Part shown: positions 60,284 through 64,000 of the stretch, piece after piece | How the letters are laid out: each line of letters begins with the position of its first letter | Numbering within the stretch: the first letter of the stretch is position 1 | Virus record (IMG/VR): IMGVR_UViG_3300020048_003360 | Location: 96,001 to 160,000 of that record | DNA from: a virus | Lineage: Duplodnaviria > Caudoviricetes | Strand: one strand, 5' to 3' | DNA length: 64,000 bases | The notes under the pieces: generated by a model | What the model was told of the DNA's origin: nothing | Databases searched by the model: none | The model's input: only the letters and a program-made list of their open reading frames with translations | Translations under genes and position numbers: made by a program

Positions 60284-60611
60284 GTTAAGTAATGGGTGGG
60301 GTGTGATACGTTAGATTTTAATCATACCATAGCGACCGCATCAAAAGTTTCCAAAGCTTTATTGGAAGAACACCCCATTGATAATTTACATCCCATAGAA
60401 CACTACACAAAATATATTGCATAATGCTCTACAGGTTGCACACTAGTAGTTATGGGAGTACTAACGCCATAAAACTAATGACAGCTTGCAGTTATATTAA
60501 GAATCACTTAATATAACTACCGTACGGTTATGAAGAGTGATTAGTTCTTCTACATTCACCGTAAGTTAATCCTCACATTATCCCATAAAGTACGTATGGA
60601 ATGTTTGGAAT

Positions 60612-60840: not shown

Positions 60841-60916
60841 TGGTGGGACCGGAAGGAGTTGAACCTTACATTCTTGGCTTTATGAGAACCCTGCTTCACC
60901 GTTAAGCTACAGTCCC
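60841..60916 (-). tRNA. tRNA with CAT anticodon (Met or lysidine Ile2)
   Basis: Cloverleaf GGGACTG/CGGTCCC, GCTT/AAGC D stem, CTCATAA loop, TTCAACT T loop, encoded CCA. Confidence 0.85.
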
Positions 60917-60943
60917 AATTTACTACATTTAACTTCTCAAAAA

Positions 60944-61470
60944 TTGTGCTCCTTAAGATATTTCTATCTATACTGTCATTCTAAATCAAGAGCATTATTT
61001 AGAATCTAGACTATGTTATCACCATATATTTGGTAGCTCTTACTCACCACACAGGTGGCTTGCTCAAATACTTAGGTATTCCGTTTCTAGTCTCTACACC
61101 TTCCTGTTATTCCTTAACGACTGTACCACTTCGATCCGTGGCCTTGGTAGGAATACTACGAGTTCAGGCTGGCTCGGCGCTGGCATATTAATAACTACCT
61201 TAGAACAGTCTTACTGCCGATGATTTTTCTTCGGAAAACCATGAAACCATCATCTGCTTCAGATACTTATTAACTTAGCTTTTGCCGAATTTACGGAAAT
61301 ACTACTAGCGGGTTTCCCTTGATACGTTACGCCTTTTCGCGTTCGTCTTACTATACCTGATTCCATTAAGGACTCACAAACATTTCTGCTTGCTCTTCGG
61401 CGATTATCCTATCCAGGTTATCGAAAACTGACTACCATATCATTTTTCGCTAGTGACCTATTACGACACT
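60944..61470 (-). ncRNA. Group I ribozyme core A, host gene not identified
   Basis: P3 TTCCGT/ACGGAA; P AAATTCGGCAAAA; Q GCCGAGCCAGCC; R GGTGTAGAGACTA; S ACATAGTCTAG; P9 hairpins; 3' TAAG. The 5' boundary is uncertain. Confidence 0.75.
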
Positions 61471-61476
61471 TTATTC

Positions 61477-61743
61477 TCACACTATATTAAACCTACCATC
61501 AAACAATAGGTTTTCATTTTGTAATCTGATGTCTCCAGAGACGTTCAAATAGTAGGCATCCTTAACCACGGAGCCGTCTTCTAGATAAACATTTATCCTT
61601 AAGACATGATTCCCAAGCGTTTCCTTTATGTCCAGAAACACTCTATCCTTTACAGTAACTCTGGTAGTTACTTTAAGGTCTTCACTTTCTCCAATAGTGA
61701 AGTCATTACCAATAAAATACCTAATCATTTGCACCTCCATCAA
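61477..61743 (-). CDS. Hypothetical protein between the two ribozymes
   Basis: 88 aa, GAGGAG RBS. Confidence 0.6.
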   Translation of the reverse strand: MMEVQMIRYFIGNDFTIGESEDLKVTTRVTVKDRVFLDIKETLGNHVLRINVYLEDGSVVKDAYYLNVSGDIRLQNENLLFDGRFNIV

Positions 61744-61761: not shown

Positions 61762-62510
61762 TTGTGCACCTTAGAATGTTTCCATCCATTTAGTCATTTA
61801 TGGTCAAGTGTATTACCATAAATCTAGACTATTATGCTCCTTCATTAACTGTGGTTCATATTAGAGCTTCTGACAGCCATATGGTATTTTAGGTACATCA
61901 GAATTTAAGTACCACAACTACTAATCTACTAGACAACTAACTTAGGATTCCGTTTTTATAATCACACCTTCCTGTCGTGTCTTTGGAGGTACTTCTATCC
62001 TCAGTACTTTATGGGGTCTTAGTCCCACTACAGGCTTGGCTCAGTATCAACATATTCTTTAAAATAGGCTCTTCATTACATTCGGGCAACCCTGCTAGAA
62101 CTAACCGAATGAATTCTATTTACTCAAACCCGTGGCAGGATTTAACTTCGATTTGAGTACCGTCTCTTAAAGAACTTAGTTTTTACTGATTTTACGGAAA
62201 CTGATATCTTTGATTAGATCATTGTGTCATTTAGAATGGTAGGTAAAGGAATTAAGTTTTTACACTACCTTTTTAACCTATTTTATCCATAGCCACGACT
62301 ACAGTGCTAATCTAAAGTAACCAGTGCGGTACTATGCTAGGTGCATAATTGTATAACTCTGCCTAGCGCAAAGCGTGTGTCCTTTACTACTAAAGTTCAC
62401 GGGAGTAAATGAAGCTATGGACTTCATTCAGGGATTTTTCTTCTGATTATGCTCATTGCCGAAGATCCACCCGTCGCACGGTCGTATACCCATGTCCATA
62501 GCATGGGTTC
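61762..62510 (-). ncRNA. Group I ribozyme core B, host gene not identified
   Basis: P3 TTCCGT/ACGGAA; P AAAATCAGTAAAA; Q ACTGAGCCAAGCC; R GGTGTGATTATA pairing with S ATAATAGTCTAG; same 3' architecture as core A. The 5' boundary is uncertain. Confidence 0.7.
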
Positions 62511-63852: not shown

Positions 63853-63903
63853 TGGTGGGGGTAATCGGAGTCGAACCGATATACCTTGCGGTGAGGGATT
63901 TTA
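63853..63903 (-). tRNA. tRNA-Leu(TAA), 3' exon (5' exon outside the window)
   Basis: TAA AA TCCCT, variable arm ACC GCAA GGT, ATCGG TTCGACT CCGAT, TACCCCC A CCA. Confidence 0.8.
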
Positions 63904-64000
63904 CTTACCACTTCGGTTTTCACCGCCAGTCTTAGCCCTTGCGGGTTATCTTCTGTTCGTGGTCTGGACTATGCTATCGCCATATTACGATTTATCACCT
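63904..64000 (-). ncRNA. 3' part of a group I intron in tRNA-Leu(TAA)
   Basis: S element GATAGCATAGTCCAG, P9-type hairpins with GCAA and GAAA loops, terminal TAAG directly before the anticodon. Confidence 0.75.

Follow-up and report, generated by a model that had tools for sequence, protein, structure and literature searches.

The window, by which we mean the whole 64,000-nt stretch of DNA analysed here (bases 96001-160000 of a 208-kb IMG/VR record), carries a tRNA array on its minus strand. Contigs from four aquatic metagenome runs of one study reproduce this DNA without differences, and no variant lacking the element described below was found in the four DNA runs. Read along the minus strand, the array includes a tRNA-Leu(UAA) gene interrupted by an IC3 intron of 444 nt (63853-64000, continuing past the end of the window; L004:4853-5381), a heavily altered ribozyme (element B), an ORF of 83-88 aa with a GGAGG-type ribosome-binding site (61477-61743), element A (60952-61464) and, 35 nt downstream of it, a complete tRNA-Met(CAU) gene (60841-60916). 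The end of the ORF forms the 5' flank of element A; no relatives of this ORF, no clear Pfam family and no endonuclease or maturase motifs were found. No intrinsic terminator was found between the tRNA-Leu gene and positions 60283-60248, where a strong one (14-bp stem and T run) follows, beyond the last tRNA fragment, ~300 nt of non-coding DNA with long hairpins (60290-60600, minus strand), a stretch without matches to Rfam or to the covariance model R1 described below. Debris is found in the array at 63838-63800, 62816-62738, 62735-62680, 60815-60651 and 60650-60606 (minus strand). It comprises the 5' part of a tRNA running into the ribosome-binding site of an ORF, a tRNA-like gene lacking a D arm, a tRNA-Arg(UCU) reduced to its 3' two-thirds, and a truncated HNH endonuclease ORF of 54 aa, next to which lies a T-arm/acceptor fragment of a tRNA.

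Element A is a full-length group I ribozyme of the Azoarcus type (IC3), the kind that resides in tRNA introns. The IC3 core covariance model R1 spans P3 to P7', and its seed comprised four bacterial introns and one compact phage tRNA intron, all taken from other genomes and recognised by Rfam RF00028. Its match to element A (61006-61299) covers the whole model with 68.2 bits and an E value of 3e-15. Since this score lies inside the range of the tRNA-resident phage introns (58-96 bits), the identity of the element is confirmed. With the same model, the phage's own tRNA-Leu intron reached 85.4 bits (E 1.6e-19) and element B only 20.2 bits, while nhmmer aligned element A with the tRNA-Leu intron at an E value of 5e-17. 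The original prediction had claimed a complete catalytic core and an S region closely resembling that of the tRNA-Leu intron, and both claims hold: element A keeps 50 of the 54 core columns that are at least 95% conserved among 25 tRNA introns, and its ATATGGTGATAACATAGTCTAGA has 20 of 23 bases in common with the tRNA-Leu counterpart. The search with group I models that it proposed had a divided outcome, in that RF00028 misses element A even at E<=10, whereas the purpose-built R1 finds it. RF00028 also fails, at the same threshold, on the genuine tRNA-Leu intron, and is thus insensitive to insert-rich introns such as these two.

The element is taken to extend on the minus strand from the first nucleotide homologous to the family (GUAAU, 61464-61460, as at the L022 junction) to the final G of a UAAG (60955-60952). 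A guide-like AGGUC (61455-61459), which lacks a partner at the homologous 5' position, precedes the P2 domain (61304-61454). The latter contains P2 (61454-61448/61310-61304), P2.1 (61442-61436/61326-61320), P2.2 with an insert of ~95 nt (61432-61331) and a GG-GAAA-CC hairpin (61318-61311). The long-range CTAGCG/CGCTAG stem noted in the first reading is present and encloses 137 nt, but it does not constitute extra 5' structure: it is P2, and all members of the phage family have a P2 domain with inserts of varying size, as does the tRNA-Leu intron among them. The core begins with the 5' strand of P3, J3/4 AAA and the 5' strand of P4 (UUCCGU AAA UUCGGC, 61284-61298), which form P3 (61298-61293/61084-61079) and P4 (61289-61284/61178-61173). 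Then follow a P5 domain with a receptor-like GCUAAG/UAUGC and a long extension (61183-61279), and a P6/P6a domain (61099-61172) with the pairings CC/GG and CCUG/CAGG and the inner UAUUCCU/AGGAAUA and CCAC/GUGG. J6/7, the 5' strand of P7, J7/3 and the 3' strand of P3 occupy 61078-61103, a 26-mer that equals that of the family save for one base (GAAACGG instead of GAGACGG). P8 with the 11-nt receptor CCUAAG...UAUGG (61076-61022) and J8/7 (61021-61014) come before the 3' strand of P7 (61092-61088/61013-61009, 3' strand UAGUC), whose G-binding pair is G61092-C61009. The 3' domain (60952-61004) is peculiar to elements A and B and consists of a P9 hairpin of 8 bp with a 10-nt loop (61004-60979), a UGAC linker and an AGAUA-GAAA-UAUCU hairpin (60969-60956) ahead of the terminal UAAG.

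Helices P2 to P9 are thus all represented, together with two canonical GAAA-tetraloop/receptor clamps and a G-binding P7 with GACUA/UAGUC intact. All of the ~115 listed base pairs form, the sole flaw being an A.C mismatch at the end of P4. Minimum free energy folding was uninformative (z = -2.0). The P9 loop (60987-60996) could pair with 61391-61397 of the P2 domain (UGCUCUU/AAGAGCA, 7 bp), and in element B the corresponding loop (61805-61814) could pair with 62261-62266 (UACACU/AGUGUA, 6 bp), with two positions changed on both sides relative to A; against shuffled loops, this kissing pair is only marginal (3.9% for A, 33% for B). A module of 73 nt in the P5 extension (61196-61268, minus strand) is identical at 65 of 76 positions to the P6 extension of a tRNA-Leu intron on another contig (L005:737-810). 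Related ribozymes have apparently exchanged this peripheral module from one helix to another.

The placement of the terminal G at 60952 agrees with homology, because the tRNA-Leu intron, whose limits are given by ARAGORN, ends in ...GUGGUAAG, and the UAAG at G60952 aligns with this family end. With P9 rearranged, G60951 or G60977 are also possible. Homology to real introns starts at intron nucleotide 1 and stops at the UAAG, and the arrangement of GUAAU and guide seen at the 5' end also follows the terminal G at the L022 junction.

No exons were recognised on either side. ARAGORN with introns allowed found the tRNA-Leu gene with its 444-nt intron and no split tRNA around element A, while the only Rfam match in the region was to tRNA, at tRNA-Met, with no riboswitch. 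Coding exons are likewise missing beside the element, the flanks having stops in two frames and running through the tRNA gene in the third. The sequence downstream had been described as neither a tRNA nor a CDS exon, and this is correct: it amounts to 35 nt followed by tRNA-Met at 60916-60841. The absence of a 5' exon and of a U-G P1 was also rightly noted. In tRNA-resident relatives, the exon GACU| pairs with GGGUC over a loop of 5-7 nt, whereas the 5' flank of element A (...GUGUC|GUAAU) is unable to pair with AGGUC at the homologous site, so that a U.G P1 is absent there. Looser 4-bp matches to the guide number 42 in 2.5 kb, which is the level expected by chance. A tmRNA search with ARAGORN was negative, the flanks contain no T-loop or CCA end, and Rfam tmRNA matches nearby reach only 11-13 bits and fall on tRNA fragments away from the element. 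Readings of the flanks as a tmRNA intron, a permuted intron or a decayed upstream ribozyme were dropped because their defining parts are missing. The 3' flank (60922-60951) has the form GNGCACAAUYUUU...GAGRAGUUAAWUG, common to A and B, and no pairing partner in the ribozyme body was found that is consistent across the two.

More than 120 bacterial genomes contain the 17-mer GAAGGTGTAGAGACTAG, which element A has in common with the tRNA-Leu intron; of 163 instances of the motif, 120 lie inside intron-split tRNAs, and compact bacterial copies of these introns pass RF00028. In the phage's own tRNA-Leu gene, the intron is inserted as ggact/intron/taaaa between nucleotides 33 and 34 according to ARAGORN, one position 5' of the classical cyanobacterial site, and its removal restores a perfect tRNA. 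Exact-pattern scans yielded 10 viral and 28 metagenome loci, most of which are tRNA introns (Leu, Met/Ile-CAU and others). Nine distinct full-length ribozyme loci lie outside any tRNA (L010, L012, L013, L014, L019, L036, L038, L025 and L040), mostly just upstream of a ribosome-binding site and an ORF starting with ATG.

These exon-less loci differ from the tRNA introns in their guide. The base before GGUC is G in all 14 distinct tRNA-resident members and A in all eight exon-less ones, element A included. The guide of element A reads AAUAGGUC followed by ACUAGCG, lies directly 5' of P2 and carries this A-GGUC signature, by which the element groups with the exon-less relatives in other phages; its 5' end, AAUAGGUCACUAGCG, is identical in L038. 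Where the contig includes the 3' end of an exon-less locus, a short hairpin begins at the terminal G, with a loop complementary to the guide and a U.G at the third pair. Guide AGGU is combined with loop ACU|U in six loci (L010, L012, L013, L014, L036 and L038) and guide AGCC (AGCCC) with loop GGU|U in two (L025 and L040), so the pairing of guide and loop covaries, as do the hairpin stems. This suggests that the P1 of these relatives may be formed with a substrate located 3' of the ribozyme. An intact core and a covarying guide-hairpin pairing show the exon-less lifestyle of the relatives to be real. No such guide-pairing hairpin is present after G60952, and no UUACUUAA hairpin was found in the 208-kb genome.

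Searches for an orthologue of element A in IMG/VR, the metagenome collection and GenBank phages found none. In GenBank phages, blastn in distant mode returned nothing for A, and for the tRNA-Leu intron no more than a match of 34 nt, while IMG/VR patterns for the 3' domain of A and B and for the P5 module of A found L005 alone. Two contigs reached through a neighbouring 229-aa protein (L015 and L016) have no tRNAs or ribozymes there. One contig (L027:1-1459) shows an exact period of 549 nt, with no mismatches at lag 549, and in it the terminal G of a family intron runs straight into UUAUUGGGUC, the 5' end of that intron; we read the contig as a full-length circular intron or a perfect tandem.

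Several derived traits are common to elements A and B and absent in all other members: P7' reads UAGUCU where the others have UAGUCC, J7/3 has an A, AAAA and CUAAG occur at J4/5-P5, and the GAAA hairpin now lies outside the P9 hairpin. The ~28 nt after the terminal G are near-identical as well, and the shared 3'-flank motifs are found only at A and B in the 208-kb genome. Given these derived traits and the common flank, A and B are sister copies, probably of a unit that already lay outside a tRNA. In B, the shared flank is the ribosome-binding leader of the next ORF (GAGGAG...AUG); at A, the homologous GAGAAG...AUG is followed by UAG, with tRNA-Met in place of an ORF. The flank is better conserved between the two than the peripheral helices, which hints at a functional flank.

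The differences between A and B are also informative. The P9 stem differs at five of eight pairs, each time on both sides, and the GAAA hairpin at two pairs, again on both sides; relative to the family consensus, P2.1 of element A has two double compensatory changes and one wobble-compatible change. Such compensatory changes reflect selection on structure in the exon-less state. Together with the guide signature of the exon-less relatives, they support the view that A has long been outside a tRNA with its helices maintained. Of the 54 near-invariant core columns, four have changed in A (J5/4 A>G, deletion of an A in J6, J8/7 G>A and P7' C>U), whereas B deviates at 19, with a heavily altered core and remodelled J6/7 and J8/7; no such deviation occurs in the tRNA-Leu intron or in five further exon-less members. 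The contrast of four deviations with 19 suggests that purifying selection acted on A during much of the time it has been without exons, and it may do so even now. In group I introns, J4/5, J5/4 and J8/7 are the elements that dock P1. An erosion of P1-docking joiners in A fits with the absence of P1, in numbers too small to test. In a related phage (L009:3230-3370, minus strand), a module ~78% identical to the P5 extension of B, with compensatory stem changes, lies beside the T-arm fragment of a tRNA as well as a homologue of the 49-aa ORF preceding B; on the same contig, a tRNA-Met gene comes directly after the tRNA-Leu intron.

To our knowledge, group I ribozymes of bacteria and phages are almost only known as introns in tRNA, rRNA, tmRNA or protein genes, and we know of one well-studied exception, a regulatory ribozyme in a Clostridioides difficile leader. 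In our literature searches, no description of exon-less group I ribozymes in phages was found. A eukaryotic parallel is GIR1, the lariat-capping ribozyme of twin-ribozyme introns, whose core derives from group I but lacks P1; it no longer splices and instead cuts just before a downstream message. GIR1 is small, is housed within another intron upstream of a homing endonuclease gene, and its junctions are rearranged in a way of their own. Element A resembles it as a group I-type core without P1 and, unlike it, is not located within another intron.

Among bacterial IC3 tRNA introns, such as those in Azoarcus tRNA-Ile and Anabaena/Nostoc tRNA-Leu(UAA) and the classes of Williams 2020 (bioRxiv 10.1101/2020.01.27.920355), all bacterial examples in the last catalogue lie in tRNA or tmRNA genes. 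Element A has in common with these introns the J3/4 AAA, the P4 UUCGGC/GCCGAG, the GAAGGUGUAGAGACUAG motif, CAUAGUC in P7', two clamps formed by GAAA tetraloops and 11-nt receptors, and a probable terminal G. It departs from them in lacking tRNA exons and P1, in its large phage-family P2 domain, in its rebuilt P9 and in the four near-invariant core changes. With the exon-less phage leader ribozymes it shares the full length, the location outside a tRNA and the A-GGUC guide, and the GAGAAG...AUG kept in its flank may correspond to their position ahead of a ribosome-binding site. Unlike them, it lacks a 3' guide-pairing hairpin, and its P9 differs from theirs; a tRNA follows it instead of an ORF, and it shows four core deviations where the five compared have none. 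The c-di-GMP-controlled group I ribozyme in a 5' UTR of C. difficile (Lee et al. 2010, reviewed in PMC3984707) interrupts no gene, and the choice of its site of G attack shapes the ribosome-binding region of the mRNA (PMC3984707). Element A likewise interrupts no gene. In C. difficile, however, both splice sites of the ribozyme are defined and a riboswitch lies next to it, whereas A has neither a 5' site nor an aptamer. Truncated tRNA-Leu IC3 intron relics were observed in bacterial genomes (for instance L053, L072 and L089), cut in the core or with one tRNA half gone, and show the ordinary decay of the IC3 family. They are, like A, IC3 copies minus one or both tRNA halves, but they are fragments cut within the core, whereas A is full-length with every helix intact.

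We tentatively favour the explanation that element A is a stranded intron copy, unable to splice, in early decay and with no demonstrated current role, and place it a little short of an even chance. A and B would descend from one unit of the exon-less phage class, a ribozyme plus a leader of ~28 nt, whose folding would have been kept by selection after its exit from tRNAs. Element A would then have lost the partner of its guide, being left with no P1, no exon on either side and none of the 3' substrate hairpins of its relatives, and the ORF once served by its leader appears to have been replaced by the AUG-UAG and tRNA-Met. Given that no intrinsic terminator was found between the tRNA-Leu gene and 60283-60248, it is probably transcribed within a long minus-strand tRNA/ORF precursor, in which it would fold. 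Without P1, both splicing steps should be impossible, and the remaining chemistry may at most comprise binding of G and hydrolysis after G60952, 35 nt ahead of tRNA-Met. We rank this explanation first because of the loss of the hairpin and of the leader ORF, the core changes, and the debris around the element (the truncated HNH gene and the tRNA fragments). Against it stand the ~115 pairs, all of them intact, the compensatory changes in P2.1, P9 and the GAAA hairpin, the canonical state of both tetraloop/receptor pairs, the retention of the guide GGUC, a core far better kept than that of B, and the conserved 3' flank.

The same observations bring close behind it, at what we judge a lesser yet substantial probability, the reading that A is a stand-alone ribozyme or structured RNA still in use and acting on the tRNA-operon transcript, given that the helices are intact, the guide is retained and decay has been much slower than in B. 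It could, for example, cut after its terminal G and separate the mRNA of the upstream ORF from the tRNA-Met precursor, or its guide AGGUC could act in trans on GACU|U RNAs, a sequence that is also that of the spliced tRNA-Leu(UAA) anticodon loop. Helices and tertiary clamps have remained intact under compensatory evolution, the core is much better kept than in B, and the parts that read the splice sites have been remodelled in A and B (J4/5, P9 and the 3' tail) along with a new receptor-like P5 motif, which resembles adaptation more than decay. At least eight other phage contigs have exon-less relatives in front of genes that keep a perfect core and a guide-hairpin pairing that covaries, A and its neighbours are not divided by any terminator before 60283-60248, and there is a precedent for domestication in the C. 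difficile 5' UTR ribozyme (PMC3984707). A continuing use must be set against the fact that no substrate helix is identifiable for A and that four near-invariant core positions have changed, compared with none in the tRNA-Leu intron and five exon-less members; moreover, no orthologue was found elsewhere, the ORF of the leader has been lost downstream of A, and the sole 4-bp match to the guide in the 3' flank lies inside tRNA-Met (GGGACU|G), where a cut would destroy the tRNA. The four core changes and the missing substrate hairpin fit a stranded copy at least as well as the repurposing that the original prediction put forward. A broader version, in which A, B and the exon-less relatives form a class that does not splice and works as stand-alone RNA-processing or RNA-targeting enzymes, seems to us unlikely. 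The guide AGGU would match the ACU|U found both in the hairpin loop of the relatives and in the spliced tRNA-Leu(UAA) anticodon loop, and the hairpin-less A would either act in trans on RNAs with ACU|U or cleave the transcript of the tRNA operon where A itself ends.

As a conventional cis-splicing intron of a non-coding or leader transcript with a distant or non-canonical 5' splice site, an arrangement that we consider improbable, A could use GACU|U at 61704-61700, with the 83-88-aa ORF in the P1 loop, or GGUU|UA at 61493-61488. The GACU|U at 61701 does form 5-6 bp with AGGUC(A), its U.G being in register, the P1 loops of L023, L032 and L035 tolerate insertions longer than 45 nt, and ORFs in peripheral loops are common among group I introns (PMC3984707). 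Nevertheless, such matches are as frequent as chance would have them (42 sites in 2.5 kb). A splice at 61701 would remove the ORF, leaving its codon 9 fused to a stop codon; neither a P10 pairing nor a recognisable product is apparent, and the ORF lacks relatives as well as endonuclease or maturase motifs. Still less probable, in our estimate, is a two-ribozyme system in which A and B would circularise the mRNA of the intervening ORF by back-splicing, in the manner of permuted intron-exon constructs, or would splice in trans. The layout of B, ORF and A with near-identical sequence after both terminal Gs would suit it, as would the pairing of the guide of A with UGACU| at 61793-61789 in the 3' domain of B and the circle chemistry of the family seen in the 549-nt circle-like contig (L027). 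Circularisation, which the first reading had raised, falters on the missing P1 at the 5' edge of A, since back-splicing of the ORF between B and A would require one between the ORF end and the guide; both copies are whole ribozymes instead of halves, and the core of B is heavily altered, at 20 bits. That the resemblance is due to chance or an assembly artefact, with no ribozyme at all, we regard as scarcely credible: the failure of RF00028 even at E<=10 would favour it, but RF00028 misses the genuine tRNA-Leu intron too, R1 scores 68 bits with an E value of 3e-15, and the contigs of four runs reproduce the DNA without differences.

Element A is a full-length, well-maintained IC3 ribozyme that lies between genes without exons, and the phage intron family to which it belongs has several such exon-less members. 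Should these RNAs act without splicing, nature would offer in them instances of a group I core put to new use in cleavage or targeting, and they would provide a direct experimental handle on group I ribozymes after the loss of P1. If A is only stranded, A and B would form a dated decay series in which the P1-docking joiners go first and the peripheral helices last. Three other group I introns, of a different type, are present in the same phage at 31114-31465 and 33663-33966 (minus) of the window and at C1:86570-86871 of the genome, and exceed the Rfam threshold with 77-92 bits.
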